A stretch of 63,542 bases of DNA, the filler included, from Folioceros fuciformis (lineage: Eukaryota): the NCBI GenBank assembly GCA_049999805.1. It is 11 parts of 11 records of this genome, joined end to end, with 100 filler letters (N's around TTAATTAATTAA, not from the genome) between each part and the next. Parts side by side here need not be neighbours in the genome. Positions count along the whole stretch, not along the records: positions 52,293 to 62,096 come from JBNGIO010004978.1; 10 more parts are not named here. One strand, given 5' to 3'. Made by a program: the position numbers and the translations under genes. The stretch's first letter is position 1, and each line of letters opens with the position of its first letter. Positions 8,733 to 63,542 of the stretch are shown piece after piece. The notes under the pieces are model-generated. The model had not been told where the DNA came from. It made no database searches and saw only the letters and a program-made list of their open reading frames with translations.

Positions 8733-8735
8733 TTT

Positions 8736-8753: not shown

Positions 8754-8853
8754 ATGAATAGATGTTAGAAACACATGTAGGAGTGACTAACAGCTGAGTA
8801 GAGAAGCTTGGAGCGGACTGGAGAAAGAAAGTCCGTGTAGTCGTGGTTAATGG

Positions 8854-11315: not shown

Positions 11316-13333
11316 GCATCGTATTACTGTAAGTTTATTTTGCGATTTGCTCATATAGCTGCCCCACTCACGCAATTACTTCAATGAAGCCAAGTTTGGA
11401 CTTGGGGTGCTGCTCAAGACAACACTTTTTGTGCTATCCAGACTACTTTGGTGACTGCCCTTGTGTTGGGATACCCAAACCCAACCATACCTTTTATTGT
11501 TATAGCCGATACCTCTGACCTTGCCATTGGTGCGGTCCTTCAATAGGACTATGGCCAAGGCCGCCAACCGATTGCTTAGTTCTCGCGAAAGTTGAAGGGC
11601 GCCGAGTTGAATTGGACAACCAATGAGAAGGAGACCTTAGCGGCATTAAAGACATGGCATTGTTTTTTAGAGGGTGCCCCTTTCGAACTTGAGATAGACT
11701 ACTGCCCTCTTATTTATCTCCAGACGCAGACCACTCTCTCTCACAAGAGCCCGATGGCTTGAGTTGCTCTAGCAGTACCAATACAAGATCAGGTTCGTCA
11801 AAGGCCATCATAACCAAGTTGCTGATGCTTTAAGTAGGGTTCAGACCAACACACTGTCAGAGTTACATATTCAATCCAACTGGCGGGATGAAATTGCCAG
11901 GGCCCTTCTACAGGATGCGGACGCCCAATGTGCCCTTCAGGCCCTTCGAGATGGTTCCACTGACCGGACTGAGCAGGATGGCCTGGAATGGTATTGTCAC
12001 CGGCTCTTCATCCCACAAGTTCCCCATATCCGCCGGGCCTTGCTTTCCGAGGCCCACGATGCCCCATCTATAGGTCATCAGGGTATAAATCGTACTACTA
12101 CCACCCTCAGTCGACATTACTTTTGGCCTCAGCTCAATCAGGACGTTTGAGACTATGTTCTTCTCTACGACTTATGTCAACCAACCCAACAAAGCTTGTC
12201 ACCAACGCCTTGCCGGCTTGCTCCAATCCTTGCCTGTTCCTCTACTACCCTGGGAGCCAGTCACACTTGACTTTATAACTGGGCTGCCTCGCACTAATAT
12301 CGGATTTGATGCGTTGCTGGTCTTCACGGATAAACTCACTCGTCAGGTGCTTTTTGCCCCCACTACGGAGACATGCTCTGCTGAACAAACCGCTGACCTT
12401 TTCTTGAAGGTGGTTTATCATGCCCATGGCCTCCCTCGCTCCCTTGTGAACGACCGTGACTCCAAATTTACATCCCATTTTTGGTAGTCATTTCACCGTG
12501 ATCTTGGCACCAAGCTATGTATGTCTACTGCCTTTCATCCACATACGGATGGTGCTACGGAGCGAGCTAATCAAGTCTTGGAAGATATGCTCCGTGCCTA
12601 CACAGGTGTACATCAAGCTTGGTGGCCGGATTTCCTCCACCTCGTCAAGTTTGCTTACAACAACGCCCCTAACACCTCAACCCAAGTTACGCCATTTTTA
12701 TTCAACAAAGGTTTCCACCCCCAAACATTGCTTTCTGCTTCTTTGCCTTCCATCGCTTGTGTTCCTGTTGCTATTGATTTTCTCACCCAGCGTACTCAAG
12801 TCCAACAGCAGGCTCGCTAGTTCACTAATGAGGCCCAAAATTGCCAAGCCCAGTATGCCAATTAGCATCGGCGCCCTCAGGAGTTTATGGTAGGTACCTA
12901 TGTTTTGCTGTCTATCCGAAATTTGTTCCTCCCGGGGACTTGTAAGATCTCCCCTCGCTTTATTGGTCCTTACCATATCCTCAGGCGCATTGGCCTTGTT
13001 GCCTATGAACTTGCCCTTCCTCCTGAATCTCGTATTCATCCTGACTTTCATGTTTCCTTGCTCAATTTGTATGGTGGCCCCCCACTTACTGTCCCAGCCC
13101 CGGTAGATACCTGTGATGGCCCCGCGTACAAAGTAGAGAGCCTCCTCTGCCATCGCCGTATTCGACATCGGTATGAGTTCCTAGTGCTATGGAAGGGTTT
13201 CCCTATTAGCGATGCTTCTTGGGAACCCCTTGCCAACCTTTCTCATTCCTTTGGCCTTATTCGTGCCTATGCTCGTGCTCATCACCTACGTCTCCCCGGC
13301 TTCGAGGATGCAGCCTCTTCTCCCCCAGGGTGA
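11316..13333 (+). mobile_element. Chromoviral Ty3/gypsy pol fragment (RNase H, integrase, chromodomain), degenerate; probable LTR start near 13336
   Basis: PWEPVTLDFITGLP, DRDSKFTSHFW, STAFHPHTDGATERANQ, PRFIGPY, and chromodomain YKVESLL...YEFLVLWKGFPISDASWEP. Confidence 0.9.
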
Positions 13334-13878
13334 GTTGTCATGGGCAAGCACCATTAGAGGCAGATAGCCCACTGTAAGCCACAATCACGGCGATCACGAC
13401 GATAGTAGTCATTATCTCGGGCAGATAAACCACTCTAAGCCATGATCAAGGCGTAGTTATCACCGCAATCTGTGGCATCTACTCCACAAGCTTGAGCTTT
13501 TATGCTTGGCTCCGTGGCTAGCAGGGGGATTGATTTCTAATGCAAGTGCATTCCCGTATCTGTTCCTTGCTCGATGAAATCCGGTTCATGACACCCTGCT
13601 TGATGTCGTGCTTCAAAAGGTCTTGCTCTTGAACATCTGAACTTAACCCTTGTAGAGGAAAAAACCTTTTGGGACTCCCATTTTGAAGAGCAGAATGAAC
13701 AGGTTGTGATTTGTTTTGTGAAGATGCGAGTGGATTGGCTTAGTATGAGAATAAGACTTGGGTAATTATACCCAAAAGGCTCCTTGGCCCTTGGTGTTTC
13801 GCTAGGATTGAGTGACAGGACCAAGGGGAAGGGTGTGCAAGAGAGTCCTTGGCCCTTGGTGGTTTGGGGGGCACTCAG

Positions 13879-16800: not shown

Positions 16801-17818
16801 GCGCCAGCGGCAAAGAGAGAGGCGATAGTAATTGCAGTCTAGACTACTTTTTTTAGATTGTTTTTGCTGGGACCTAAGCCGCTCAGAATTTAAGAGCGCT
16901 GACTAACCCCTGACAGACTTTATGGCGGAAGAGACCGCCACTACTGTGTAAAAGAGGCCAGTTTGGGGCCTCGGAAAAATCAGCAAAAACCAGCCCAACA
17001 TTCCAACCTTGTGGAAGCCTAATGATGGCCGTTGCTGGACAAGGGGTCTAGGCAAGCGAGCGCACGTAGTGTTCTGAGGGTGTGGGTGCAAGTGGTGGAT
17101 GCTCCGTGACCGAGCTCAGGGGACGAATCGGGAGGAGAGACCTCGCCGAGTGGGAGACGGGCTCCCCAACTATCCTCAAGACGATCGCGTGGAGTAGTGA
17201 GAGTATCGGAGGCCGAATCCGTGAGTTCGAAGAGGAAGTGGAAACCCCTTACCTTAGCCTCTGGTGACCCATTATTCCTCCAAAATTCAGAGAGAAGAAG
17301 AGGCCCTGGAGGGGCGAGCCAGAGCGAGGTGTCGAGCGTCGTGAGTGGACTAAGAAATGCAAGTGTGCGAGAAAGGGTGTCGATGATCGTGTGTTGGTGA
17401 AGTAAGGAGGTGGTCTGAGTGACCGCTACTATGAGAGCTGTGAGTGGACGCGGGTCGCGAGTGTGGCGACGGCCGAAGGAAGTAGTTGTATGACTGAACG
17501 ACTGTTGCGACTGTGTGTGAGTTGGCGGTGAGTCGAAAGTTGAGCTGATGAATCGTAAATTGGAACGATGAGTGTGTTGCGCCGTGGGGGTGTGGTCGCC
17601 GCTGACAAGCGAGTGAATGGAGTAAGAGGGTGACGAGAACTTGATACAACTGTGTACTGTGACAGAATGCCGTGAAGTGAAGAGAAGTCTCTATGTGTGT
17701 GTGACTGAAGTGTAGGGACGCGCGAGTGGATGTGGGAAGTCTGACCTGGGGTTGCGAGCAAAATGCGCAATGGGTGAGAGCACGCTGATTGATTAAGAGC
17801 TGTGTGTGTGTGTGTGTG
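13879..17818 (+). repeat. Second copy of the family-B large LTR-like segment (5' part) with an internal ORF
   Basis: Starts TGTCTATATATGCACCCCCC, has TATAAAA near 14062 and ORF 14461-15267, then sequence homologous to 5470-8100. Interrupted at about 17817 by another LTR start. Confidence 0.6.
14461..15267 (+). pseudogene. Retrotransposon accessory protein (plant-transposon/Athila extra-ORF-like), continuing in frame through stops into a coiled-coil region
   Basis: NGWLVRD...VDWGKILY...ISPFLIHIY motif pattern followed by an acidic low-complexity tail and a coiled coil. Family assignment is from recall only. Confidence 0.45.
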
Positions 17819-17901
17819 TAAACCTCCAAAGTTTGGGGTAGTAATTTTTTTTGGTTGAAAAAGGGTTAATAGTGGTATGGTTTGGTTTTCTTTTTCTACT
17901 T

Positions 17902-19513: not shown

Positions 19514-21813
19514 CTCTTGATAACTTTGTGGTTCACAACCAGGTTCGAAAGCAAGGTTAACGAAATCAACCACCACTCCATCGGCAGCTGAACCAGGAGG
19601 TCGAGGGACTTTCCAAAAGTCTTCACTGCTGTAAGGTGCCTCCTTCCAATTCTCACGTGTTCTGTGCACTCGAGTAGACCGCCGAAGAGGGGCAGGCTGG
19701 GGAATGGGCATCACATATTCGACTAGATCATCTTCGAACCACTCCGGATGTTGAATAACAGGCTGTGGAATAACTGGGGCTGGAGGTTCATCATCGTCTG
19801 ACTATACAAGTACAGGAAGCAAGACATCATCGAGATCAGCAGGTGGATCATCTAGATGTGTATCATCAGACTGGTCAGGGGGATCACCAAGGGCTTGTGG
19901 GGGAGGCACCACAGGTAAAGGGTCAGGAGTTGTAAAGGAAGGATCTGAGTCAGGAAACGTGGCAGATTCAAAAGCACTAACATCATCCTCTGGCTCGACA
20001 GGTTGGTTATCAACTTCTACAACATCAGGATCTGTGAAATCATCAAAGGAATGAGCTGGCGGTTTAAGAACAGAACGCTCATCGAAAACAATTGTCCTGG
20101 CATGTGAAACCTTTCGAGTAACAGGGTCGAACAACTTATAACCATGTATACCCGCTGTATAGCCAATGAAGATGTGACGTTTCGACTTATAGTCAAACTA
20201 GTGGCGAAGCTGATCAGGCACATGAGCATAGGCGGTACTCCCAAACACTCGGAGATGTGCCAGATCTGGTTTACACCCAGTCCACACTTCAAAGGGTGTA
20301 CAGCTGCGAAGAGATGAAACAGCAGAACGATTTTGTAGGTATGTCGCAACTTGCACTGCTTCCGCCCAGAATTTAACTGACAGTCTTCCTTGATACAGAA
20401 GAGAGCGAGCAGCATCCTGGATGGTCCTGTGACGACGCTCCGCACGTCCATTCATATCAGAGTGATATGGAATGGTGAGTTGTCTAGTTATCCCCCTCTC
20501 CTGACAATATTCCTGGAAGGCTAGGGATAAGTACTCCTTGCCATTGTCACTTCTGATACACTTCAGCTGATGTCCAGTCTGCCTTTCTGCGTATGCAAGG
20601 TACCGCTTGAAGCTGGAGAATACTTCACTCTTGTGGCGTAAAAGCTCTGTCACTGTGAAGTGTGACTTATCGTCCTCAAACACAACAAAATATTTAGCGC
20701 CTCCCCAGGAGGGTACCGACATTGGGCCACATATGTCGGTATGTACAAGGTCGAGAATATCTGTTGCCTTTCATGGTTTACCACTACCAAAATGTGACTT
20801 GAATTGCTTTCCATATACGCAGGCAACACACAACTCAAGATCAGAGAGTTCATGTTCACTGAATCCAGTTACCAGTTTTTCCCGAAGCATTCTTCTCATA
20901 GCTTGTATGTTGCGGTGACCCAAACGGCAGTGCCACTTAAAGGCACTACTGGAATGTCCGTCCTTGATATTCTGAACAGCAACATTAGCTGTAGAAGGAG
21001 GAACATCGGAGAGAAAGTCTAACAAATATAGATCAAACAGAGGAGTTCCCCTGGCAATAACCACTGTAGGATCTGATAGACGAGATATATGGCACTCAAC
21101 ACCCTCAAAGGTGATTTTGTACTGGTTCATCTTTCCTAGGGCCATTGTACTAACCAAATTCTTTGCAAGAGCTGGAACGTGAAGAGCATTCACGAGGAGT
21201 AAATAGCTGCCATCCTGTAAAGTAATCTGAATTGTTCCAGCTCCCTTGATTGGTATTGTTGAGTTATCTCCTAACACAACTACTGTTTGGTGACATGTAG
21301 GGGATTTCTCGTATGTGATGAAAGACTTCCTCTTTGAACACATATGGTTTGAGGCTCCACTATATAGGAACCACTTCTGACAGCCTTCTTTTGAAGACGT
21401 GAGGCATGCCACCAACAATCCTGGTGTTGAAGCTCTAGCGGTATGAGCTTCTGATGATCTCCCCTTTACACTGTCATCTCTAGCTTTCTTTCTGCAATCC
21501 TTCACCCAATGTCCTGGCTTACCACAGTAGTTGCAGTTTCCAGGCTTTGAGGTGAAGTTAGAGGATGGCTGACTAGGAGATGAGGAGGGAGTCATGGGGT
21601 GACCACGACCCCTGCCTAAACCTCCTCTTCCTCGCCCCCTGCCACGTCCACGCCCTCTACCCCTTCCAGAGAACAGAGCTGTATCACTCTGTTTATGAGA
21701 GGTATGAGAAGAAGAGGGGTTACTCTTCATTTGTTTCCTGTTTGCTTCGAACTGCAACAGTGCTCCAACCACCTTTTGTGTTGAGTTATCGAGCTCTATA
21801 TGAGCTAAACTCA
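19514..21813 (-). mobile_element. Ty1/copia gag C-terminus, protease and integrase; probably the same element as 18002-19413
   Basis: RGRGRG stretch, CNYCGKPGHWVKDC, WFLYSGASNHM, WHCRLGH, RSDNGKEY. Ends at EPQSYQE, just upstream of where the RT contig resumes. Confidence 0.92.
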
Positions 21814-24800
21814 TGTGGTGTTAGTTATCCCAGTTGGGTTCATACTAGACTAGTTCTAGTTATTAGTGAACTTAGGATAGTGTAGATTATCCCATATTGA
21901 ACCTGGAAGTTGTGTAGCCCTAAATGTACTACTTAAATGGAGACCTCGGACCTCCATAGTAAGACAGTGGTGATGTGTATTGTTTTCATGGTTGTGATCA
22001 CCAATACCACCCTCTCTTCTCTCCTCTCCTCTCCTACACTTGCACATAGACTGGAGTCGACCCTATTGACAGGCCGGACCCAGGCAAGCAGGAGGTCGCG
22101 CATCCAGGCTGGTGCAAGAGAATTGAACCCAGACAGGCCATGGCAGCTGAGTAGGGGGCCGAGTCGCAGCGGTCCTGCGATCCACTGGCCGGGACAGAGC
22201 CAGGTAGGGGCTGGCTGGCCGGCACGTCCTCCTTGCTAGCCGAATCTAGCCAACCCGAAGCTAGCCAAGCGGCAGTTGTGGCGGCCTGCAGGCGGATCTG
22301 CTGGCTAGCTGCCTGGCCAGATCCAGGAGGACAGGCCGGCCTGGCATGCGGTCCGGAGGGTGGCTGGGCCATCGGCAGCCCGGCTGTGCGACCAGTGGGG
22401 CTGGCCGGTTGGATGCGGCTGCGGGTGGCCGGACTGGTTGTGACTGCAGGCACGCAACCAGCAATCAAGCTGGCTAGCAAGCGGCCGGCAGGCAATCCTG
22501 CAGGTGGATCCGACCAGGCAGCCGCATGGTGCAGGCCAGTTGGCCGGAGGAGACCTTAGCCGGCAGGGCGAGGAGCAGGGGGCGTCGCTAGAGCAAGTAC
22601 CTGCCTAGCGGCTTGCGGGTGGCTCAGCGGGATCTGGGGCCAGCCAGGCGGGCTGCAGGCAGGGCTGGGGGGACGATGGATCCAGCAGCCAGGTCGACTA
22701 GCTACACCATGGCTAGTCGGCGGCTGGCTGGATCATGGCCAAAGCAGCTGGGCTGTAGGTAGGCGCGGTCACCGGGCCGGCTGCGATGGGGGCTAGAGGA
22801 AATTCAGGCCGGCAGGCGGATCAACAGCTGCTGGATCTGAAATCGGCAGGCAGCTGGCGGGGGGAAGTCCAGGCCAGGGGGAATCCTGGCAGGTGGCTGG
22901 CCCAGCAGCAGCTAGTTGAGGAGCAGGCAGCTGGTTGAGGAGCAGGCAAGGCTGTTTCATCCAGGAGGCGGGTAGAATCCGGGTCACAGGTATACCGAAT
23001 CCAGGGAAGCAATGACGGAAAAGCGGCTAAGGCGGCAGGCTGGTTGGCTCGCAAGCAGCCCGGTCGTCAGTATGGGGAATGGCAAGCAGCACCCCGCCCA
23101 GAAGATCGGGCTGCAGGCAGCCAGCAGCGGCAGTGGGTGGAGTGCAACCAGGTGGTGGGCAGGATCGATCAGGCAACAAGGCAGCCGGGGAAGCCGGGCA
23201 GTGACTTGCTGCAAGAACTAAGCAGCCAAGCACGCTGCCTCGCTAGATCCGGAAGGCAAGAGGCCGGAGTGTGGCCTCGGTGCAAGTGGCATGGCGCTGA
23301 AGGCTGACTGCGTGGGAGGAAGGGCTCCAAATGGTTGGGGCCGAATTTGGTCGGCCAAGGGATTAGAGGGGAGCACTGGCCTCCAGGTGACCGGTGCTCC
23401 GAGCAAGCGGGTGCCAAGATCAGTCTAGCAGACAGGCTGGTTGGTGGAGAATCTAAGCCTGGCCATATTGCGGGGGCTGAGCGGGCCGGGGTGGCAGGAT
23501 CCAAGCAACCATGCCGGTGGAATCCAAGCAGGAATGAGGGGCTCGGGCAGCCATGCAGGTGGTTGGATTGTGACCGGTCGACGGGCTGGCTGAATCCCAG
23601 TAGGTGGCTGGCCTAGCAACAGCTGGCTGGATCGAGGCCAGGCCTACCAAGCGGGGAGCAAGGGTGGCCCTCGTGAGACAGCTGGGGGCTGGATTCGGGA
23701 GCCACGCAGCGACCTGCGGCCTGGCTACAAGATCCTAAGCAAGAAAGTTAGCGGGATTTGGGCTGTGGTCTCAGGCGGATCCAGCGGACTGCAGATGCAA
23801 TGGAAGGTGCCTAGGCCCTGGCTGATGGTTAGCTGTCTGGATACGGGCTGCAGGGCACTAGACGAGTAGATCTACCGGGTCATGGGCCTTGGCCAACAGA
23901 ATGGAGGGAAGGGTCTGAAGACGGCGAATCTTTGAAGGATTGCAGATGATCTAAGAGAAAGGAGAGGGTCAAAGAGGGGAAAAGGGTGTCGAGAGGCACT
24001 CGTGAGTTTTGGTAGTTTGGAGAGGTTGATTAATTTTGATAAGAGCAACCAGGGCCACAAGTTGGGGTTAGGGTTAGGTCAGAGTCAGGTTAGGATTAGG
24101 TCGGAGTTAGGTTTAGGGTTTTGACAAGTGGAGGGTTCTGTCGGAGGCGGGTTGGCCTGGTTAGAGAGTGACAGGAGTTCCTGGCCAAGGGGGGATAAGA
24201 GGCCAAGCCTGTCATTGAGTGGGGGGTTTTTTTGGTGAGAGCCCCCTTGACCTTGTGTGTAGGCTGCTGGGTTAGAGGGTTAATCCAATGTGCAGATGCA
24301 CCTCGGCCTTGATTCCCATGCCACTAGGGGAACGTGGCGGCTCCCAAAATTGCTGAGATCTGGGTGGCCATATCCGCAGGGACTAATCTTTCTTGCAGGC
24401 TGGTTGGGTGGTTGGGGTACCTTGACGTCCCTAAGGGGTTTCCAAGGCGATAGATTGCAGGGCTGTGAGCCGAGGAGGCTATCCAACCTGGGTCTGCACA
24501 TCTTGGCCCCAAGGACTGCAAGTGGGGGGCTACTCTGTTCCAAAATCCAAGAGTGAGATGTGGAGGCGAAGGGTTGAAGAGCTGAAGTGCTGGGCAGAGA
24601 TTTGAAGGGCTGGAGAAGTGCTGGAGTAGGGACTTCAAGTGCTGGAGTAGAGACTTGAGATCTGGAGTTTGGAGTTTCTGTGCTGGTACTGAAGTTCTCA
24701 ATCAGCTGCTGAAGTAGCTGGCATTTAGGGCTAAGAGTGGAGGTCGAGGCCGGGGCTAGGGCCCCCTCTCAACTGCTGAGGCGGCTGATACTAGGAGCTA

Positions 24801-25142: not shown

Positions 25143-27428
25143 TTAAGCTTTAGTTTGAATACCCACTTAGAGGAGATAAGTTTTTGGCCAGGAGGTAAGT
25201 CTACCAACATCCAGGTTTTGTTCTTCACCAGAGAGTTGTACTCTTTGTCAACAGCGAATTCCCATCTGTCCCTTTCAGATCCTGAGAATGCTTCTGTGAG
25301 GGACTTTGGTTCTAGATGTGTGGTGCTAGAGGCAGAATGACAGGTATCTGCATAGGATGTCTTGAAATCAACTGACTCATATCTTGGCTCCTTCCATTGA
25401 TATGGTGGAGAGCGATGTCGGGTTGATCGTCAAGGTAGAGGGTCTGGTTTCGCATCTGGAACAAAAGGTAATAGACCATCTCCCTCTGCTTCTCCAACAT
25501 TTATCTCTATGTCAAGATTAGGAGCTGGTGGTTGATTTGGGACTATGACATCAACAGGTTTGGGGGTTACTGGTGGTATGACAGGAGGAATAGGAGGAGG
25601 GGGTGGCTGGTTCACTGGCTGAACAAGCTGAAGAGGCGGTTGGGTCACCGGCTAACCAACTTGTGCATCTTCCTCATCATGAGATTCGTCCATTGGAAAA
25701 TGAACAATATTATCCCCTGTTGCAGGTAAAGTTACTCCCTTTGTGTCAAAAAACCCTGTTGGTTTATCAATCTCAATAAATGTAACAGAACGGACTAACA
25801 CTACCCGCCTATTCTCAGGATCATACAATTTGTAGGCTTTGGACTGTTCGCTATAGCCAACGAAGACAAGTGCTTAAGCTCTCGGATCCAGTTTCTTCCT
25901 CTTCTCCTCTGGAATGAGAGCAAAAGCACAAGAACCAAATACTCGTAAATGCAGCAAACTAGGTTTTCGTTTCCATAATGCTTCATATGGGGTCTTTGAG
26001 GGAACGGAGCTAGTTAAAAATCGATTCAGGATATATGTAGCAGCAACAATAGCTTCAGCCCAATACTCCTGAGGTAAATTTGCCCACAACAGCATACTCC
26101 TAGTTATAGCCAGCAAAGTTTGATTCTTTCGCTCTGCCACTCCGTTTTGTTGTGGTGTATAAGGGACTATGAGTTGACGCTGGATCCCCCTCTCTTGTAG
26201 GAATGTATCAAAAGCAAAGTTCAAGAATTTTGTTCCATTGTCAGTCCGGATATACTTAACGGACTGTCCTATTTGTTTTTCAGCCATCAGCAACCATTCT
26301 CAAAAGAGCTCGAAGGTGTCACTCTTCAGTCGCATTGGATATGTCCAAGTGTAGTGAGAGTAATCATCTGTGATGCATAGGTAATATATGGAACCCCCCA
26401 GAGATGGGATATGAATTTTTCCAGATATGTCTGCATGCACTAGTTCTAACACATTTTTGGCTTTGTAGGATGCTGCAACTGGAAACGGATGAGCCTTCAG
26501 TTTTGCAACAATACAAGCTTCACAGGACGGCAGATCCCTGAAAACTTGAAGTAAGGGTTCTAGGTGACACTCTTGTAGAGACATGTCTACCAATTTGCGT
26601 TTATTAACATGACCTAGCCTGGCATGCCACATGACAGCAAGGTGTTGGGGATTGTTTGGAGACTAGCTTGCCTTATGATGAAGGGCACAGATATCAAGTC
26701 TATAAAGATCATGATCAAGTGTACCTTTGAACACCAGCATGGATGGATCTGACCTTTTGTAGAAAAGACAGATTTCATTGCTAGCTTTCATGTAGCTTGC
26801 TAAGAGAAAACAAATTCTTGGCCATGGAGGGTACATAGAGAACGCCATCCAAGGTAAGAATGGATATGTCGTCAAGTGTGAACTTACACGCCCCACAGCC
26901 TAGAATAGGGAGACTGGAATGGTTCCTTTCATCTCCCAGTAGAACTCTTTTAGCCGTGTGATCAGCTTTCAACATGTAGAACTGATCCTTGTTTTTGCAA
27001 ATGTGCAACGTTACACTAGAATCTAAATACCAACCATCTTCATTACTTATGCATCTAGCAAGGCAGACTGTAAGTATCTTCACCACTGGTTTGGTGTCAC
27101 CTGTGTTCTTCTCCTTGATCACAACAATTGCAGTATTCTTAGGAGTTCTTCAAGGTTCTCCTGCCTTCTTCTTCTTGCATTCTCGAGCACAGTGACCAGC
27201 TATGCCACACCAGTTGCAATTTCTAGGTTGTTTTGATGGGCAAGAAAAATCAGAAGTTTGCGCAGGTTTACCTCCTGCCTTGCCCTTTCCTTTGAATGTC
27301 CTATGAATTGTTGCTAATGCCTTCTCTATTCTGCTCTTAGGAGCTCCCATCGAAAACATTCTACTTTGCTCTTCCTGGTACAAGGCACTGAGTCCTTCTC
27401 CAGCTAGAACACACATGTCTAGCACCAT
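25143..27428 (-). mobile_element. Degenerate Ty1/copia (zinc knuckle, protease, integrase, start of RT), related to the 1-4147 family
   Basis: CNWCGIAGHCAREC, WYLDSS, WHARLGHVN, LVHADISG, RTDNGT, PQQNGVAERKN. Confidence 0.9.
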
Positions 27429-27439
27429 GTTGTAGTTTC

Positions 27440-29115
27440 TTGTTTATGACAGATAGTTTAGACTCTGAGGATGAAATTGTTGTGGACATTTCATCTCTCT
27501 TTGCTAAACCTCTTAACCTCTCTGTCTGGGATTTCTCCCTAAGCAATCTCTTAGAGAGGCAACGTCCACAACTATCAATCCCTAATAGGACTCTTAATCC
27601 TGTAGTCATGTTTGGAGCCTCATCTTCTGTCCCTGTTGTTCCTGTCTTGAAAATTGAATTCAGGGACAAGGACAAATTCAATAGCATAGACTATAACATT
27701 TGGGCTATGAGTCTTACCCAAATTTTTGAGGAGAATGAGCTGTTGTCCATCGTGGATGGCACAGAACCTAAGGTGACGACACCTGCTAGAACGGCTGACG
27801 AAATCCTAGCATGGGAGCGTAAGGATAGACGAGCAAGTTCCATACTCATTGCTGCCTTAGACAAAAATGTTATGCCACATACAATAGATGCGAAGACATC
27901 TGTAGATGTGTGGAAAGTTTTTCATTCAATTTACCAGGATAAGAGCTCAACCTCTCTGGTGCATGCGTACGGAGATTTTTTGAATTTGAGAATGAGGGAC
28001 AATGAGCCTGTCGAGGCTTACATCAACAAGTTTAGGACTCTCTGTACTAATTTTGCATATTGTGGCACAGTGCTTACGGAAGTACAAGCAGCGATAAGCA
28101 TCCTGGCTTCACTTCTTGAGAGCTAGCTATCAGCATTTTGTTGGCAGTCAAAATGCCAAAATACATGCAGCTGTTTAGGCGGCAACTTCAGGCCAACCAC
28201 CAAAAGTGACTCTCGAAGAAGTCATTGGTGCCCTCATATCTGAAGAACGCATAAGGAGCTTCCACAAGAATAAGAGTTCCACTACCAACAACACAAGAGT
28301 GCTCTTCATGTCAAGAGGACGAGGTGGTTTACGTGGGCGTGGCAGAGGACGCGGTTCCTACACAAACTCACAGCGTGATGTGACCACAAAGAAGACCTTT
28401 GTTTGCAACTGGTGCAAGATACTTGGACATTACAAACGTGACACCCGCAAGAAGAAGGGAGGTGAACCCAGACGAGAACATCCTCTAGAGAGCAACATCA
28501 CTACCAACAAGACTAAGCAGCCCACCATCTTGGCAGTTTGTTTGTCATTCACACAAGTACAATCTGACACATGGTTCCTCGACTCTAAAGCCACAAGTCA
28601 CATTTGCTTTCACAGGCATGCTTTTTCTTCTGTCATTCCTTCTGCTGATGCAAAACAGTTTGTCTTACTGGGAAACAACAGTGGACTTTCTATCAAAGGC
28701 TCTTTCTCAATTATTATTTCCCTGTGTGATTCTTCTAAACTCACACTCACAAATATTCTTTATGTCCCTTCAATGACCAAAAACTTGATGTTTGTTCTAA
28801 AGTTGTCACGATAACATTATTGCTGAGTGTGCTTTGATCAGCAAGGGTGTTATGTCACAAGTGCTAGGTCTGGACATGATCTTTTCTCAGGCTCACCTTT
28901 TCATGACTTGTACCTCCTGAATGTCAAAACTGTGATCAGTACCATTCAGTTAGTTCATTCTACAGAAGTCCCCTCCACACAATTGTGGCACTATCGTCTT
29001 AGACATGTCAACTTCCAACGTCTTAGTTCCCTTGTCAAAGGTGAGATTTATAGAGAGCCTCTGGATTTTTCTTTTGATAAGAATACTTTTTGTGAAGCCT
29101 GTTAGTTGAGTAAGT
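27440..29115 (+). mobile_element. Degenerate Ty1/copia gag-protease-GAG-pre-integrase
   Basis: DYNIWA...DGTEPK, RGRGRG, CNWCKILGHYKRD, WFLDSKATSH, LWHYRLRH. Confidence 0.88.
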
Positions 29116-29262
29116 GTGAACCTCCAAAGTTTGGGGTAGTAGTTTGTTTTGGTTGAAAAAGGGTTAATAGTGGTATGGTTTGGTTTTCTTTTTCAACTTA
29201 TTTTCCCTAATTTTTCTTGATTTTCTGGTCATTTTTCCTATTTTTCTTTGTGTTAATTGGGT
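29116..29262 (+). repeat. 5' end of Athila-like family A LTR (TGTGAACCTCCAAAG...); also at about 17817-17901 and on minus ending near 54690
   Basis: Three near-identical copies in the window. The minus copy leads into a PBS and gag. Confidence 0.8.
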
Positions 29263-34446: not shown

Positions 34447-34546
34447 NNNNNNNNNNNNNNNNNNNNNNNNNNNNNNNNNNNNNNNNNNNNTTAATTAATT
34501 AANNNNNNNNNNNNNNNNNNNNNNNNNNNNNNNNNNNNNNNNNNNN

Positions 34547-35844
34547 AAAGGTGGGACCCTTCGGCAATCAGTGCCCGGGGTTTTGCCTCCACATTTTTGG
34601 CGCCGTTGCCGGGGAGCGGCTTGGGAGTTTCTTTTGCTGATCGGATGGAGAGTCTAAGTTGTCCTGTCGATGTCTGGTGGAAGAGGTGATCGCAGAACTG
34701 GTAGAGGAAGAGCAGTTGCAACCCCGTCACCAAGGGATCTGCGTGCAACAAGGAGGAATTTGCTGAGAGGAGAGAGTAGCTTGACCCCTAAGGCTAGCGC
34801 CCTTGTGCAGGAGGAGCTGCCTTGGTCAAGTGGAGAGCACGAATCTGAAGGGTTGATTGCCGGAGAGCGTGACATCCAGGAGTCGAGTGTTGTGCAGTCA
34901 ACTCTAGCCCCTGTAGTGGTTTCAGTAGGGGCTGTACTTCCTACGTCAAGTATCAGCCAAGTGGGTGGAGGAGTTGCTGCAAGGATGGCTGCTCCTATTC
35001 ACAGTCGTCAGCAATACGTGAAGTTCGGAGACAAGAGAAGAGGGGAGGATGCTGAATCCTTCCTAAGGACGTTCGAGCATGTGTCTCGTGCCAACATGGA
35101 GGACACTACAGCTGATCGTTTGAGGATCTTTCCAGGTTTGCTGAGAGGACAAGCTCAGCAGTGGTACAGCCGGACGTATGGAGTAACACCACCAGTGGAT
35201 TGGGACAGCCTGAAGGACGATTTCTTAACCAGGTTCCGAGGTCTCAGCCATGGCCATCACACCTACGCGAGGTTGAGGACTTTGAAGCGAGGAAGGAAGG
35301 AGGATCTCTATGACTACATTGAGAGGTTCTACAGCTATGTGGACAGGATTCCACGTGGTAGGCCAGTTGTTCCGGGAGGTCCGAGTACTCCAGGGTACAC
35401 GGATGCTCAAGCTTTGGATTGGTTTGCTGGAGGACTACCCGATAGGATGGCGACCTACTGCACAAGAGGTGTGACCACTTTGCAGGAGGCTTTGAAGGCT
35501 GCTGAAGATTTTGAGCTTTCGGAGTTGAGCAGAGAGAAGAGGAAGCAGAACCGGAAGTATGGGCATCATAGGAGGTCAAGACATCACAGCCCATCTTCCT
35601 CTTCAAGGTCGAGGTCACCGTCTCACTCAGATCCAGATTATGACAGCCTTGTGTCAGATTCTTACACCGATGAGGAGTCCGATAAGGCTTATGAGAAGAG
35701 GATGAGGAAGGACCTGGAGAAAGCACGCAAGAGGCGCGAGGAGGATGAGGATCGTCGAGCTGAGAAGGACAAGAGAGGCAAAGGATCCTATAGGATGGAG
35801 AGAGGCGAACCGTCCTCAAGTGGTGGAGGACTGACCAGTCAGGT
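34547..35844 (+). mobile_element. Athila-like family A: LTR 3' end, PBS at about 34597 and gag ORF from 34670 (intron-less version)
   Basis: cctccaCA-tttt-TGGCGCCGTTGCCGGGGA, then gag EDAESFLRTFE...LLRGQAQQWY...WDSLKDDFLTRF. Confidence 0.9.
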
Positions 35845-47989: not shown

Positions 47990-50900
47990 CTACTCTCCTT
48001 TGCAGCTGTAAACCATTCCAACCTCCAGAAGGTTTGGAGCTGGAATCTGCAGATCGGCGATGCTGGACCTGCAATTGGTTTGGAGAAGGTAGAAAACCTT
48101 GTTCACCACAAACCTGTGAAGCCATCCAGCTTCCTGGGTGAGCTGCACTTTTGCTCTACCTATGACGTAGACTGCTCCGTTTTTGAGTTCATCTTGCAGC
48201 CTTTGCATCTCCTCCGGAATGGTTCTGAGGAACTGGCTCCGCGCATCGGCCTTAAGCCTTTCAGCGTACACCTCGGCCGAGAGTTTCTTGGCCTCCAGAT
48301 ATTCGTTGAGTGAGGCTACGACCTGCTGCATGAAGCCCTGATCTCTGACATTTACGAAATCTTTGTAGCCGTACCGGGCTATGCACCTGTACACTCCCCC
48401 GGGTCCGCATCCGGATGCGACCCTGCCCACCAGAAAACGCTCGCTTGGCAGGACGGTCTTCACAGGCACAAACCTTACGGTCGTGAAAACCAGTGTTCGG
48501 TGGAGGCTGCGGACATTTTTGACATAGTGGGTGAACACCGGAGGTGGTCCATCCGAGAGGTCGCTGAAGAAGAAGCATATTCCTGGCACCCTTTGGAGGT
48601 CAGGGCTCTCTAGGAGTTCCTTCAAGCTGTCCCCTGACAATCGGTTCTGCGCCTCATACGCTTGCTTCACACGTCGACCTATGTTCCAGGTGAGCATCAC
48701 CAAGAGGAGGAGGATGGCTATGGCAAATGGCACCCAACCTCCCTGCGGAATTTTTTTCATCACCGCTGTGATGTACACGCCTTCTATGGATATGAAGCTA
48801 ACGAAGAAGAGCAGTATGAGCGGCCAAGCTGTCTCCCAAATCACCAGCATCACTAGAGTGACCAGGCAAGTTGTTATCGCCATCACAAAGATCACAGCTA
48901 CCCCTGCAACATTTTAAACAAATATGACTCGTGAAGAAAAGTTTCAAGGATCTTGGCTGTGGACTTCACACTGAAGGAAAGTTCAATTCGGAAGACGGAG
49001 AGCTCAAAAACATCTTACCATAAGCATTCCCGATCTGGGTTCCATCCCGGAATCCGAGCACAACCGCAAGGCAGAGAATCATGAGGGCGTAGTTCGCTGC
49101 AGGGCAGTACACCTGCCCCTCTTCCTGTTCGGACGTGTGAGTTATCTTCACTCGGGGAAAGGACCCAAGAGCCACCGCCTGCTTGACTATGGAGAAGGTA
49201 GCAGAGATCAAAGCTTGGCTAGCAACAATTGCAGCAAGTGTTGATATCACAAACATAGGCCAGTACACCTTGTCTGGGATAGAGGCAAAGAAGGTAGTCC
49301 CGATCTTCGATGGATCATGGATTATGAAGGCAGTCTGGCCCAAGTATGTGAGTACGAGCGAGGGATAAACAAAACAGGAAAATGCTAGCTGCAAACAACG
49401 ACAAGCCAGTCAATCCTTCGTTCCTCCATGATTGTTCAACCGACAAATGTATGAAAAGCTCCTAGCCTGTAGTGCTGGACTACTTGCTTACTTGAATGGC
49501 TCGATGATTAAAGTGGCCCAAATCGGCAAACATGGCCTCAGCACCTGCGTTCATTATCATGATTGAGAATCTGAGAGTTTGGAGGGGAGGGTAAGGTAAG
49601 GTGAAGGATGATGCCGCTAGTCTACCTGTGATGACGAGGATGATGCCGCTAAGTGCTTCCCATCCGTGCAACTTGTTCTTTTGGAAGAAAAAATAAATGT
49701 AGTGCGGGGATAAAGCCTTGAAGACTCCCGGATAATATTTCACGATGTTGTAGAGGCCAATTATGGGTGTGCAGGCAAACCATAGGACCATGACCGGCGA
49801 AAACAGGAAGGCAACCTTGGAGGTGCCAAAGCGTTGAAGCAGGAACACTAACAGCAGTATGACCGCTGAGACGCCTACCACCGTTGCTGCATTTGTCACG
49901 AGTCACACACAAGACATATCAGATGGGAAAGCTAGAAACTATTGGCCGAAACGGCTAGTAGCTCATGACGATTATGCATGAAACTTGTACGAAGAGTTGA
50001 TCAGGAAGCTGTCTTTCGAGTAATACCTTGATTGATGTGGGAGCCCTTTGCCTGCTGGATGCCAACCACAGCTGAGAGAACTGCAGGAGGTCAAGCAATA
50101 CCACCTGTTCAGCAGACTATGTCGCAGCGGACTGGTCCCAGGGGTGCAGGCCGACAAAATGACGACACCAACATTTAAAGTGATTGTTTGCAGCTAGTTA
50201 ACGGGCCTGTTAGTCTCTACCTGATATAGCTGGCGTGAGTACACCATCACCCATCACCATGCTCGTGCCAATCATAACGAGGATGAGCAATGCTCTCTGT
50301 GCCGTCTTGCTACTCTCCAAGAATTTTATGGTACGGGAGTGTATCCCCTTACTATTTTTGCTGAAAAATTGCAGCTGTGAATCGGACTGCAGGGGCTTGT
50401 AAGATCTGCCAGCCGTCTGTCCGATTCTTGCATGCTGACACAACTTAGAGTATAACGCAGCCGTACCTCCTGTAAAACGCAGCCGTCCACGGTTGGGTGG
50501 ATGTGAATGATATTGAGCTGACTCCAAAACCGCTTTATACTCTTAAGTGGGTTCAAACAAGAAAGAAATGAAAAGAAAAGAAAAAAACAGTCGTCCATTG
50601 TACAGGACCTCAAAACTCACCTTCCCCGTGGTCGTCAGCTCGGAGCACTATAGAAACGTATTTGAGAAGCGCGATCAACGTCAGAGTCCAGAACATGATG
50701 CTCATGACTCCTAGCACATCCATCTCCGTCACAGGATTCTGCCACTGCGTGCTAGAGAAAACGTAGAGCGGAGACGTGCCTACGTCGCCATACACCACTC
50801 CCAAAGTCTGGTACGCAAGCAACAAGGTCTGCCAAGTGCCATAGTTCTGCAGAAGAAAACACGATCAAACAGCTGCATAAGCATCCGTCACAATTCAAGC

Positions 50901-52292: not shown

Positions 52293-54690
52293 CTGTGATG
52301 CCTCGACCTCCTATGATGCCCATACTTCCGGTTCTGCTTCCTCTTCTCTCTGCTCAACTCCGACAGCTCAAAATCTTCAGCAGCCTTCAAAGCGTCCTGC
52401 AAAGTGGTCACACACCTCTCATGCAGTAGGTTGCCATCCGATCGGGCAGTCCTCCAGCAAACCAATCCAAAGCTTGAGCATCCGTGTACCCTGGAGTATT
52501 CGGACCTCCTGGAACAACTGGCCTGCCACGTGGGATCCTATCCACATAGCTGTAGAACCTCTCAATGTAATCATAGAGATCCTCCTTCCTTCCTCGCTTC
52601 AAAGTCCTCAACCTCGCGTAGGTGTGATGGCCATGGCTGAGACCTTGAAACCTGGTCAAGAAATCGTCCTTCAGGCTGTCCCAATCCACTGGTGGTGTCA
52701 CTCCATACGTCCGGCTATACCACTACTAAGCTTGTCCTCTCAGCAAACCTGGAAAGATCCTCAAACGATCAGCTGTAGTGTCCTCCATGTTGGCACGAGA
52801 CACATGCTCCAACGTCCTTAGGAAGGATTCAACATCCTCCCCTCCTCTCTTGTCTTCAAACTTCACGTATTGCTGACGACTATGAATAGAAGCAGCCATC
52901 CTTGCAGCAACTCCTCCACCCACTTGGCCGATACTTGACGTAGGAAGTATAGCCCCTACTGAAACCACTACGGGGGCTGACAATGGAACAATGGCCGGCA
53001 AGGGGTTGGGCTAACCACCAACAAGTGACTGCAAGCTATCCAGCAATGATACCACGACTGAAGTATCACCTAGAGTTGACTGCAAAGCACTCGACTGTAA
53101 CACAGACTCCCTCTCAACACGACCCACTTGTTGGTTGTAAGACTCCTTCCTGCAACCGGATGTAATACCAACCTCCTGGATGTCACGCTCTCCGTCAATC
53201 GACCCTTCAGATTCGTGCTCTCCACTTGACCAAGGCAGCTCCTCCTCCACAAGGGTGCTAGCCTTAGGGGTCAAGCTACTCTCCCCTCTCAACAAATTCC
53301 TCCTTGTTGCACGTAGATCCGTAGGTGAAGGGGGTTACAGCTACTCTCCCTCTACCAGTTCTGCGATCACCTCTTCCACCAGACATCTACAGGACAACTT
53401 AGACTCTCCATCCGATCAGCAAAAGAAACTACCAAGGCGCTCCCCAGCAACGGCGCCAAAAATGTGGAGGCAAAACCCCGGGCACTGATTGCCGACGGGT
53501 TCCACCTTTAGTGGCCACACTTATCCCATTATCGTTGAGACATTGGATTCTGTTCCCACGAAGGAGCGATGAGGTTCCTTGCTGCTGTGGATGGAGGGTC
53601 GGACTCAATCGACTTGATGATGGATTCGAGGGCTCCCCTCCAGCTCTGATCAGGCGTAGGACAGGCCTTGCTGTCCAGCAGTCAGCTGCACCTCTCTTGG
53701 TGCCCACAAACTCACTCCAGTCACTACAACGACCCTGACCTCTCAGATTTGTGACTTCCCTCACTCACTTTACTCACTCTCTCACTCCAGCACCAACACC
53801 ACCAACTAACAACGACACCACTACCTTCTACACTTCCCTATTGACTCCTCCTACCCGGCAAGAGTCACTAGACTAACCCCAAAGAAGAGAAAGAAGGGAA
53901 CACACTCTCCCCCCCCCCTTCCCCCTCGGATATCTCCTGTCCACAACCTTACCAGACGCCATGAAACATGGCCAGCCTACAGCACTTGTCCAAACAGGGA
54001 ACAAGAGTGGACAGGTCGAGAGAAAAACGCATCCTTTACAATCAAGAGCTAGGGGCAAGCCCCTTCACCCTAGTCATTACACCTTGTGATCCTTGAAGGA
54101 TTGGAAAGGGAGCCACATGATGAAGGAGAAGAGGAGAGGAGAGGAGGAGAGGAGAAAGAGAGGTCTCATAGTGTCTCTCACAGCTCTATTGCAAAGGGAG
54201 CTCAAGAGGGTATTTATACCCTCTAGAAAAGCTCCCAAGGAAGCTTCACAAGAAGCTCACATGAAGCTTCACAAGAAGCTCACAGGAAGCTATGCAGGAA
54301 GCTTCCTAAAAATTAGCTTAAGCTAATCTAAACTAATGATACTTAATTAGACACTAATATTAGACTAATCACATTAGTCTAATTAGACTAATCACATTAG
54401 TCTAATTAGACTAATCACATTAGTCTAAGCACATTGGGCTTTAATAACCCTATGGCCCGGTACCGGACCTAAACTTTCCCAGGTCCGGAACCAGACCTGT
54501 ACCCACTTTAATAACCAAACCAACTATTCCCTAGTCAATTAACCCAATTAGCACAAAGAGAAATAGGAAAAATGACCAAAAAAATAAAGAAAAAATTAGG
54601 AAAAAGAAGTAGAAAAAGAAAGCCAAACCATAGCACTATCAACCCTTTTTCAACCAAAACAAACTACTACCCCAAACTTTGGAGGTTCAT
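52293..54690 (-). mobile_element. Athila-like family A 5' end: LTR about 54690-53463, PBS about 53441-53458, gag from about 53385 (intron-containing version)
   Basis: Reverse complement of the 34547-35590 copy with two extra GT-AG segments. Confidence 0.9.
54094..54454 (-). repeat. Solo copia LTR (same family as 32703-32994) nested in the family A LTR
   Basis: Reverse-complement match, e.g. ctctagagggtataaataccctcttgagctccc, with an expanded attagactaatcacattagtcta palindromic repeat. Confidence 0.8.
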
Positions 54691-54954
54691 ACTTCATCCC
54701 ATTTCTTTGCCTGATTCTAGTTCTTATCACTATGGTGCCCATGCCAGTCATGTCCTGCTTGGCTGTTCATCTCTTGTACCCTTACATCCCCCATTTTTCA
54801 CTCTTGCTCTATCAATTAATCATATCCTTTTGGACAACAGATCTTTGTGAACTGTGCTTATCTTTGAGAGGCCATGGAAGGGCATCCCCAATTTTTTACT
54901 CTTGATCTATCAATTAATCATATCCTTTTTTACAACAAACCTTTGTATCAAGGT

Positions 54955-59609: not shown

Positions 59610-61049
59610 AACACTCCCTCTTAAGCTAGAAACAAGGCCCAGGTGGAACGCCAAGGCCAGGCAATTTGAGAGGCATTAAGACTTCATCCGCGTGGCTTGG
59701 CAAAGATGACTTGCTTGTGACGGATGGATGCTACAATGCTCCCTTTGAAAGCTAAGCCTTTGCTTCAACTTCTAGTTCTGATAAATTGCAGTGAGAAGTC
59801 AATAAGACGTAGCTTCTGCATATACTAATAGTGGCACAACTTAGGTAAGCCGTTAGTCAATATATGTGCAACATTGTCCTCAGTAGAGACATAGGTGGCC
59901 TTGACTACACCCCGCTCAACAACATCACAAACGTAATGGTGCTGAATCTCAATGTGCTTTGTCCTGGCGTCAAACTTAGGGTTTGCAACCAAGGCCAGAG
60001 TTGACATGTTGTCGCAATGTAGGGGCATGGGAGAATCCTGCTTCTGGTCTATGTTTGTGAGGAAGGATCTTTCCCACTTTGGCTCCTTAGCAGCATCAGT
60101 GAGTGACCTATACTACGCTTTAGTGGAGGAGAAGGCAATGGAGGGTTGCTTCTTGCAACTCCAATTCACTGCTGTTCAGGACAAGAGGAAAGAGTGGGCG
60201 GTAAGACTTTTACGCAAGTCGTGATTGAAGGCCCAATATGAGTCAGTATACTCTGTGAGTACCAACTTTCTTGTGCCTTGACTCTTGTAGGCTAGGCCAT
60301 AAGTGAGGGTCTCCTTAAGATAGCGGAATATCCTCTTGACTGCTGCCCAGTGAGCCCTTTCGGGTGATTCCATGAATTGAGATGTTGTGGAGACGGAGTA
60401 CTAGATGTTAGACCTGGTCCATCCACTTACAAAAATAAGACTACCAACAATATGACGGTAGGGGACGGATTCCATCTCCTTGGCCTCTTTTGCTATTTGT
60501 GGGCATTGGTCTGTTATGAGCTTTGTGCCTATAGTGTAGGGGGTGCTAACAGGTTTGGCTTGGTCTAACGTAAACCTTGCAAGAATTTCCCTTATATACT
60601 TGTACTGATGAATGATCAGGCTGCCCTGGGCTCTATCTTTGAGAATCTAAATTCCTAGGCAAAATTGCAATTCCCGATGTCTTTCATATCAACCGTGCAC
60701 TAAGCAATTGCTTGACCTCTCCTAGCAAAGCTGGGCTGTTTGTTGCAAGGATAAGGTCATCCACATAGAGAGCAAGGAGCAAGAAGTGCGGTCCTTGGGA
60801 GAGCTTGTAAACATTTCCATTTGCCAAACTTTGCACAAAGGAGTGCATGGTAGTGTACCAGACGCGGCCGCTCTGCTTGAGGCCATAAATGCACTTCTTC
60901 AATCTCAGGACCTTAAGTAGGAATTGCTTGCTAACATATCCCTTAGGTTGATCCATATAGAGCTCTTCATCAAGTGCTCTGTAGAGGAATGTTGTGCAAA
61001 CATCCATCTGGTGTAAACCCAGATCCAACTTTGCAGCCAGAGATGTCAA
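59610..61049 (-). mobile_element. Degenerate Ty1/copia RT-RNase H with PPT near 59613-59621
   Basis: HQMDVCTTFL, YGLKQSGRVW, LYVDDL, YTDSYWA, CDNMST..ARTKHIEIQHH. Confidence 0.9.
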
Positions 61050-62635
61050 GACGTGTTAAGCTGTGCTGGCAGTTAACCTAGTTGTTAGTTAAGACGTAAA
61101 ATAGGGTCAGCTGACAAACATGTTTAGGCTAATGTGTTTAGTACTGGTAACCAATTGCAAGGTAGTCTTCATGCTTGAGCAACGAGGTGGAAGAATGGTC
61201 GGACCAACCTGATCACGTGAATGCGCATTGGTTTGAGAAGGAGCGTGAATGAGACACTGAAGAGGAGTGCAACACTAGTGTGAAGTGCGTGGCTCGCGAG
61301 AGGTGCATCATCAGAGCGAGGTGCTACGTAGTAGCTAAGTGCAAAGCAATCGGGGGAAACCTCAGTTGTGAGAAGTCTTTCCGGTTGACCAGACTTAGCG
61401 CCGCCGAGGTTCTCCTGACGTTGCTGATGGAAACCCACATACAAGAATATAGTATCAAGACTTTCTGCGTTCTCAAAAGCTGAATGATTGATGTCGGCAC
61501 AAGCCGAGCTTCCAAAGTCCTGCGTCCAGGGTCACGCTCTGAGGATCCGAGAGTGGGTGTGCTTGTGTTTGTTGATGGTGCTGCTTGTCGGTGTGCTCGT
61601 AAGGGAGATGACTTACCTCAGCTCACGTTTTTGTGTTGCCCGATCGCTGAGAGTGCGTGTTGGGTAGCCTAGGGATTAGCCACTGGTGATTGCCGTGACT
61701 ATCGTGGTGGATACTGAGGCCTAAATTAGGGATGACTCGAATGACGTGTGCGTTGTGTGCCGTCTGCGAGTTCCTTCAAACTTCAATTGAATTTACTTCT
61801 CACAACTAATGTTTGTGCCTTGGCTGATTGCTAGGGTCTCAGGATAGGGACGTCAGCTGATGCAAGCAGCTGACAGGTTTTGCTGATCACGGCTGTGAAG
61901 ACTTGTGCTTGAAGTGATACATGTGTCTAGGGTACACCCTTGGACAGACTGTTTGGGCAAAGGATTCATAGTATGTGGTTCATGCTTGTTGATTTTGTAA
62001 ATAAAGCGGAAGCTCTCGTGTACACGAAACAAGTGCACAAGCAAGAATAAATTTAATTAAGACAAAGTATGCTTAAATACAAAAATGTCCGTGTAANNNN
62101 NNNNNNNNNNNNNNNNNNNNNNNNNNNNNNNNNNNNNNNNTTAATTAATTAANNNNNNNNNNNNNNNNNNNNNNNNNNNNNNNNNNNNNNNNNNNNTAGA
62201 GAAGATCAAATGCAGTACTGGTGAGGCCTAGTTCGCTAAATCACCTACAATGGCTTGAGTGACCAATAATGAAGAGGAAATTATTCCAAATCCCCCATTA
62301 GGTAATGATAATGCTAACACCTCATTGCATTATCATTAAAGTAACATCTTCAAAGGGAAAGACAGATTCAATGGAAAAGACTGAAATATGGGCATTGAGA
62401 ATGCAAGGAGCCTTACAACAAAGAGACCTTTGTGGCATTGTTGATTTTATCAATTCCAAGACTAGAAAATTGATTTGAACGTGATCTTCAACCTTCATAG
62501 AACGCTGTAGAGGAAAAAAACTTTCGGAACTCCCATTTTGAGAGACAGAATACACAGGTTTTGATTTTTTTCTTGTGAAAGTGTGAGTGAAACCGCTTAG
62601 CTTGAGAATAAGACTTGGGTATTTATACCCAAAGT

Positions 62636-63542
62636 CTCCTTCCTACGTCAAGTATCAGCCAAGTGGGTGGAGGAGTTGCTGCAAGGATGGCTGCTCCTAT
62701 TCACAGTCGTCAGCAATACGTGAAGTTTGGAGACAAGAGAAGAGGGGAGGATGTTGAATCCTTCCTAAGGACGTTCGAGCATGTGTCTCGTGCCAACATG
62801 GAGGACACTACAGCTGATCGTTTGAGGATCTTTCCAGGTTTGCTGAGAGGACAAGCTCAGCAGTGGTACAGCCGGACGTATGGAGTGACACCACTAGTGG
62901 ATTGGGACAGCCTGAAGGACGATTTCTTGACCAGGTTCCGAGGTCTCAGCCATGGCCATCACACCTACGCGAGGTTGAGGACTTTGAAGCGAGGAAGGAA
63001 GGAGGATCTCTATGACTACATTGAGAGGTTCTACAGCTATGTGGATAGGATCCCACGTGGCAGGCCAGTTGTTCCGGGAGGTTCGAGTACTCCAGGGTAC
63101 ACGGATGCTCAGCTTTGGATTGGTTTGCTGGAGGACTACCCGATACGATGGCAACCTACTGCACAAGAGGTGTGACCACTTTGCAGGAGGCTTTGAAGGC
63201 TGCTGAAGATTTTGACCTTTCGGAGTTGAGCAGAGAGAAGAGGAAGCAGAACCGGAAGTATGGGCATCATAGGAGGTCGAGGCACCACAGCCCATCTTCC
63301 TCTTCAAGGTCGAGGTCACCGTCTCACTCCGATCCGGATTATGACAGCCTTGTGTCGGATCCTTACACCGATGAGGAGTCCGATAAGGCTTATGAGAAGA
63401 GGATGAGGAAGGATCTGGAGAAAGCACGCAAGAGGCGCGAAGAGGATGAGGATCGTCGAGCTGAGAAGGACAAGAGAGGCAAAGGATCCTATAGGATGGA
63501 GAGAGGCGAACCGTCCTCAAGTGGTGGAGGACTGACCAGTCA
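62636..63542 (+). mobile_element. Third Athila-like family A gag copy (5'-truncated, frameshifted)
   Basis: Nearly identical to about 34937-35842. Confidence 0.92.

Follow-up and report, generated by a model that had tools for sequence, protein, structure and literature searches.

In this study, we analysed a 63.5-kb stretch of the Folioceros fuciformis genome assembly GCA_049999805.1 (63,542 nucleotides (nt) in all; hereafter the window), in which two copies of the 5' part of one long terminal repeat (LTR) retrotransposon family differ by the precise loss of two GT..AG segments, 78 and 93 nt long, on either side of a 25-nt micro-exon near the start of gag. We consider it probable that the copies lacking both segments derive from doubly spliced element RNA that was copied back into the genome. 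According to this proposal, a high-copy family of the Ty3/gypsy type, resident in a streptophyte (a land plant or close algal relative), would give rise to a transcript that carries two GT-AG spliceosomal introns around the micro-exon, within an open frame leading into gag. The doubly spliced RNA, with R-U5, the primer-binding site (PBS) and the rest of the element, would have been packaged, reverse transcribed and integrated at least once, and the outcome would be DNA copies that lack both segments exactly and form a minority beside an intron-bearing majority. Three steps of this proposal are inferred from the DNA: formation of the joins by the spliceosome, origin of the copies through reverse transcription of spliced RNA, and translation of the region upstream of the conserved gag domain.

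The window consists of eleven unplaced contigs chained by ten linkers of the form N44-TTAATTAATTAA-N44 (17902-62196; for example 34447-34546 and 62097-62196). Features on different contigs have no physical linkage and, because the window chains unplaced contigs, the copies compared here are unlinked members of one repeat family. The intron-bearing copy lies on the minus strand of the contig at 52293-62096, and the intron-less copy on the plus strand of the contig at 34547-35844, which is merely 1298 bp long. Upstream of the first join, positions 34547-34882 of the intron-less copy are 93.8% identical to positions 53509-53173 of the intron-bearing copy. A third family copy (62639-63542, plus strand) is 97.6% identical to 34937-35841; it is truncated at its 5' side downstream of both joins and is hence uninformative.

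Borders of the two segments in gag

The alignment of the two copies extends over 625 positions with 34 mismatches (94.6% identity), and its internal gaps measure 1, 78 and 93 nt. The latter two are the sole long gaps between the copies, both run from GT to AG, and an exon-final AG precedes each GT. In the intron-bearing copy (minus strand), exon 1 closes with ...CATCCAGGAG at 53173 and is followed by the first candidate intron (53172-53095, 78 nt, phase 0; GAG/GTTGGT...GTGTTACAG/TC), which ends in TTACAG, has a GC content of 0.487 and is open in the gag frame. Next comes the micro-exon (53094-53070, 25 nt, minus strand), which is present in both forms and shows two differences from its counterpart at 34883-34907, and then the second candidate intron (53069-52977, minus strand, 93 nt, phase 1; TAG/GTGATA...CCATTGTCAG/CC), which ends in TGTCAG and has a GC content of 0.505. 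The part of gag downstream of this 93-nt segment begins CCCCCGTAG in the intron-bearing copy (minus strand). In the intron-less copy, on the plus strand, the micro-exon at 34883-34907 is joined directly to its neighbours at 34882/34883 and 34907/34908, with the downstream part starting at 34908. An earlier reading made from the sequence only had described exactly this precise loss of two GT-AG segments around a 25-nt micro-exon and had noted that both lengths are multiples of 3, and direct reading together with the alignment bears out both statements (78 and 93 nt).

Each of the two gaps can slide by 2 nt owing to a shared AG, and a single placement yields GT..AG. When all deletions of 60-150 nt were enumerated in 52300-53440, a GT..AG placement was possible for 1543 of 93366 (1.65%), and the product of this single-deletion rate puts two GT..AG-compatible deletions at about 3 in 10,000 by chance. 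These figures bear on the idea that two independent deletions, at the DNA level or through template switching by reverse transcriptase (RT), took place at 2-nt AG microhomologies and that the GT..AG ends are coincidental, which we regard as very improbable. Such deletions are in keeping with the AG microhomology at each gap, with lengths that are both multiples of 3, with the exon-like GC content of the segments and with their position in a region outside the coverage of gag relatives (none of 139 matches starts before residue 65). However, besides the low rate of GT..AG-compatible deletions, the same AG is used twice, as the splice consensus predicts, both segments have the size of host introns, and the two losses occur together in the window copy; in addition, the 27-letter side of a joined contig from one of the sequencing runs described below (X2) fits the doubly joined form. 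An origin of the 93-nt gap by direct repeats was also considered and rejected, since the weak similarity that follows its two borders is, as judged by eye, out of register.

The two forms in public sequencing runs

Four public sequencing runs were compared with the window as contigs (X1 to X4), of which X1 and X2 come from the same sample and X3 carries a second species label. Thirty of 747 run pieces were listed, together with a single joint, and the kind of each run (DNA or RNA) is a guess by software, X4 being the run guessed to be RNA. The longest contigs of X1 to X3 measure 71-131 kb, and because of these long contigs and the many distinct flanks after the LTR end, the three runs look like genomic DNA.

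One contig of X2 joins 52976 to 53070 and thereby skips exactly the 93 nt of the second segment (depth 192.1; ends CT..AC on the plus strand). The shorter side of this contig has 27 letters, corresponding to the 25-nt micro-exon plus the shared AG, and therefore looks as a doubly joined form would make it look. Furthermore, one contig each in X1 and X2 ends at 53173 with 21 loose letters, the reverse complement of which equals 34883-34903; because of this match, exon 1 is joined straight to the micro-exon in both runs. No joint was called in X1, X3 or X4 among the pieces listed. The segments themselves are covered by record 4 of X1 (52932-53157, depth 593.5) and records 11-13 of X2, and both are bridged by record 20 of X3 (52908-53218), the run with the second species label, and by record 24 of X4 (52930-53246). 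Contigs that bridge the intron-bearing form are present in all four runs. This form is the majority in X1 and X2, and the joined form reaches about one sixth of the X2 word depth at that place (192 versus 855-1223), where depth is not copy number.

The recurrence of the joins bears on whether the intron-less contig could be a complementary DNA (cDNA) or assembly artefact with no genomic copy behind it, an explanation that we find barely credible. The contig is only 1298 bp long and begins inside the LTR end, as an R-U5 cDNA would; however, both joins recur in a separate run that resembles genomic DNA (131-kb longest contig and dozens of flanks at the LTR end). The relative abundance of the two forms bears in turn on the direction of the change. 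If the short form were ancestral, the segments would have entered the majority lineage afterwards, through intron gain or as small insertions; the comparison of the copies is unrooted and the short copy has the better-preserved frame, both of which would suit such an order. We nevertheless regard it as highly improbable, since the long form is the majority in X1 and X2 and the form found in X3 and X4, and since two in-frame gains 25 nt apart, stop-free among the differences listed, would be a demanding coincidence. In addition, neither segment has a further copy in the window beyond 16-nt matches, and for this reason the segments are unlike mobile introner-type insertions.

We now return to the reintegration of spliced RNA with LTR and PBS, as the sequence-only reading had put it. 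The observable part of that statement holds, because the intron-less copy, which lacks both segments, still has the end of the LTR, the PBS and a gag frame that is open, and the same joins are found in X1 and X2; the splicing itself is the part that is deduced from these DNA copies.

Two further observations were made in the runs. Record 25 of X4, a contig of 3954 nt (depth 44), matches 52930-53017 on the minus strand, where it covers gag sequence downstream along with the 3' portion of segment 2, and upstream beyond about 53017 it runs into unrelated sequence; it may represent a diverged subfamily or a chimeric transcript. In X1 and X2 the word depth over the last approximately 55 nt of the LTR (53463-53520, minus strand) is about 100,000-170,000, versus about 600-3000 for gag, and dozens of different flanks follow. 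Such values suggest a very large number of solo or 3' LTRs, or an LTR end common to several families, the element on the first contig of the window having the same end.

Host introns, reading frame and the element

A yardstick for the candidate introns is provided by a KUP/HAK-family K+ transporter gene at about 47993-50849 (minus strand) with at least six short GT-AG introns, the borders of which were placed from tblastn pieces together with the sequence. The best database relatives of the transporter are bryophyte and other land-plant proteins (at most 49% identity), and on these grounds the host is a streptophyte with no proteins of its own in the database searched. Its six introns measure 151, 140, 140, 81, 103 and 115 nt, have GC contents of 0.39-0.51 and all run from GT to AG, with donor sites as weak as GTATTA and GTAGAC. 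The candidate segments (78 and 93 nt; GC 0.49 and 0.51) fall at the short, GC-rich edge of this host range, the 78-nt segment being 3 nt shorter than the shortest of the six (81 nt). The 3' ends, as judged by eye and with only six host introns for comparison, are pyrimidine-rich in segment 2 and purine-rich in segment 1. The earlier claim that this family has introns in the 5' part of gag thus stands in so far as the GT..AG ends, the exon-final AG and the host-like length and GC content make the segments look spliceosomal, and it is weakened by the weak splice sites and the exon-like GC content.

Several points weigh against splicing followed by reverse transcription. The segments have a GC content of 0.49-0.51 against 0.50-0.53 in their flanks, with no enrichment in AT or U, and because of this missing enrichment they are weak introns by seed-plant standards; both donors (GTTGGT and GTGATA) deviate from GTAAGT, and the purine-rich 3' end of segment 1 is likewise unfavourable. 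As the segments are both in frame, losing them by two deletions within a variable N-terminal region would be tolerable too. X4, the run guessed to be RNA, contains the unspliced form alone with no joint, and neither a singly spliced form nor a joint skipping the 78 nt occurs among the pieces listed, where the 25-nt exon is too short to anchor one. Finally, outside the assembly the joins are backed by a single sample, with one contig per join per run.

The reading frame across the segments was followed in the intron-bearing copy and in the run contigs. An in-frame TAG is present in segment 2 of the intron-bearing copy (53013-53011), as had been noticed from the sequence, and it belongs to this copy and is not a feature of the family, because all of the depth at 53013 in all four runs reads another letter. 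The differences listed from the run contigs, checked one by one, cause no in-frame stop within either segment. The frame is kept when the 78 nt, the 93 nt or both are removed, and skipping of the micro-exon, which removes 196 nt, breaks it. Because both lengths are multiples of 3 and no stop occurs among the differences listed, the gag frame would be preserved in the RNA whether neither, one or both of the segments had been spliced out, and on the same grounds the segments are not simply non-coding spacers and resemble exitrons. The term exitron denotes an intron that lies within an exon of a plant or animal gene, and its definition requires that alternative splicing be observed in RNA. Like exitrons, the segments lie in an open frame, have lengths that are multiples of 3, exon-like GC content and weak splice sites, and are located in a non-conserved, probably disordered region; here they are candidates seen in DNA copies. 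To our knowledge, no retrotransposon gag with exitron-like introns that are in frame has been described previously, and among the titles and abstracts listed by our literature search none connected exitrons with the gag of a retrotransposon.

Between the two segments there is an 11-nt stretch of perfect complementarity, one arm lying in segment 1 (53135-53125, minus strand) and its partner in segment 2 (53027-53017, minus strand), and complementarity of this length between the segments was reached in 2 of 5000 shuffles. The stem is present in the minimum free energy and centroid folds, in both the 216-nt and the 661-nt context, with the micro-exon looped out. The overall fold energy is no better than that of shuffles (z 0.10 and 0.90), and it is the single inter-segment stem alone that stands out. 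The differences listed within the stem, at 53135 and 53131, are A-to-G changes on the element strand opposite U, so that G-U pairing is retained, and no compensatory double change is found among them. We consider the predicted stem to be a lead and not proof. An Rfam search of 52293-54800 gave no match.

Both copies have the landmarks of an LTR retrotransposon around these segments. The 5' LTR of the intron-bearing copy extends over 53463-54689 on the minus strand; its end is firm (CA at 53463), and its start is approximate, having been set where similarity to 29112-29262 begins. Loose contig ends, at least 6+15 in X1 and at least 8+22 in X2, diverge exactly at 53462/53463, and such varied flanks are as expected for LTR ends beside varied insertion sites. 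The contig of the intron-less copy begins inside the LTR, of which it holds the last 47 nt (34547-34593, plus strand) with the CA end at 34593. The LTR end is followed by four T and then by an 18-mer PBS starting with TGG, which lies at 53441-53458 (minus strand) in the intron-bearing copy, with one mismatch to the other two window copies, and at 34598-34615 (plus strand) in the intron-less copy as an exact match. The 18-mer has three matches in the window (8736-8753, 34598-34615 and 53441-53458) versus 0.02 expected by chance. Presumably it is complementary to the 3' end of tRNA-Asp. No tRNA gene is found in the window.

In the intron-less copy, the gag frame runs on the plus strand from the first ATG at 34670 to the contig end at 35844 with 391 open codons, and the Pfam domain Retrotrans_gag is found at residues 153-229 (E 2.3e-11); a Pfam scan of the frame gave nothing besides this domain. 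In the intron-bearing copy, gag (52293-53386, minus strand, again from the first ATG to the contig end) is decayed, with a 1-nt indel relative to the other copy, the TAG at 53013-53011 and, beyond it, a pair of neighbouring stops. The first join lies 213 nt into the frame, and the two joins fall after residue 71 and within residue 80. Over its first 105 codons the spliced frame contains no stop, versus six and seven in the two alternative frames. Among 20000 shuffles, 106 were open; because such openness is unlikely by chance, the N-terminal part of gag is probably translated. A tally of the differences between the copies by codon position, with 6/7/6 for the N-terminal part and 4/2/4 for the conserved one, carries no information and is compatible with neutral decay.

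The N-terminal part of gag is not conserved. In an exhaustive protein search of 1.84 billion representatives, none of the 139 matches starts before residue 65 and the best four start at residues 100-112; the relatives are only distant, the best being 45% identical, and the search yielded no additional family copies for comparison. Word-index protein searches with gag gave no match, and a metagenome scan with a gag pattern gave 111 pattern matches and no relative. When 25 gag relatives were scanned, Retrotrans_gag was found in all 25, Ty3_capsid in 12, RVT_1 in two and PF03078 (Athila ORF-1) in none. There is no pol of this family within the window. A gag relative on the first contig shares the PBS and the LTR end, is 29% identical (E 2e-18) and has a chromodomain integrase. 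The label "Athila-like", which the sequence-only reading had given to the family, is consequently unsupported, as there is no family pol in the window, PF03078 occurs in 0 of 25 relatives and the gag relative that shares the PBS has a chromodomain integrase; the family is of the Ty3/gypsy type, with no narrower lineage assigned. The clusters that ranked top in a protein atlas (scores 0.90-0.91) had suggested Oomycota as a taxon lead, and this lead was rejected since the host K+ transporter matches bryophytes and other land plants.

The remainder of the window is almost wholly retroelement debris. A second Ty3/gypsy element, the one with the related gag and the chromodomain integrase, is present at 5463-17819 (plus strand), with an LTR pair at 5463-8065 and 15251-17819 that is 84.7% identical and with the same 18-mer PBS at 8736-8753; it is probably internally deleted, because neither a protease nor an RT domain was detected in the stretch that separates its gag from its integrase. 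Ty1/copia fragments (RVT_2, rve, Retrotran_gag_2 and Pol_BBD) are found at 97-4153 (minus strand), 19805-21820 (minus strand), 25877-28811 and 60687-61055 (minus strand).

Related systems and biological meaning

Plant LTR retrotransposons are generally without introns, and the exceptions given in a review are Ogre and EVADE (PMC12786077). For Ogre, which belongs to the Tat lineage and is found in legumes, two papers report a spliceosomal intron that is removed from a subset of the element's own transcripts (PMC6317226, PMC12786077). The family studied here is similar in that an LTR retrotransposon has a candidate intron in its own transcript; however, its two segments are small and in frame, they precede the conserved gag domain and lie far upstream, and the frame is kept without splicing. 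BARE1, a Copia element of barley, has a facultative intron of 104 nt at the end of gag, the splicing of which creates a stop so that Gag alone is made, and DNA copies derived from that spliced transcript were not amplifiable from genomic DNA (PMC3735527). The likeness is that a plant LTR retrotransposon has a small alternative intron, here a candidate one, within its gag region, and the difference is that DNA copies corresponding to the putative spliced form exist here and are not rare. Alternative splicing of element RNAs is also reported, in a study on sunflower, for the elements of that plant (PMC7730604).

A further related system is that of the SpIREs (spliced integrated retrotransposed elements) of human LINE-1. 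Splicing within LINE-1 followed by retrotransposition yields copies without the intron, with exact borders, and these can form a subfamily, although promoter sites or ORF1 function are lost and the study regards such copies as dead ends in evolution (PMC5860796). SpIREs and the copies described here have in common that genomic copies lack the (in our case candidate) introns at exact borders; however, SpIREs derive from a non-LTR element, whereas here an LTR element is concerned, which retains its LTR end and PBS as well as a gag frame that is open. Among the papers listed by our literature search, none described an LTR family that combines in-frame introns near the beginning of gag with an intron-less genomic subfamily, and the work on Ogre splicing may bear on this point.

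LTR retrotransposons are thought to exclude spliced RNA from their particles. Splicing may, as the sequence-only reading suggested, tune gag isoforms or gate expression, and no spliced RNA was seen in the runs. A more far-reaching idea, which we put forward as speculative and doubtful, is that the two segments might constitute one regulated RNA module, in which the 11-bp stem would loop out the micro-exon, the structured unspliced form would mark the genomic RNA and splicing would give a Gag that is 57 residues shorter. Leaky exclusion of the spliced RNA could then have produced a heritable intron-less subfamily, which would be freed of weak introns and may depend on, or compete with, intron-bearing masters.

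If doubly spliced RNA was indeed copied back into the genome, as we think probable, a family in which the doubly spliced form makes up a sizeable genomic minority would document, in a natural setting, that splicing can precede reverse transcription. Replication would then also be shown to proceed without some 170 nt close to the beginning of gag, either in cis or with help in trans. Furthermore, the three states of a copy, with both segments present, one lost or both lost, would provide a countable marker of how frequently spliced RNA is packaged.

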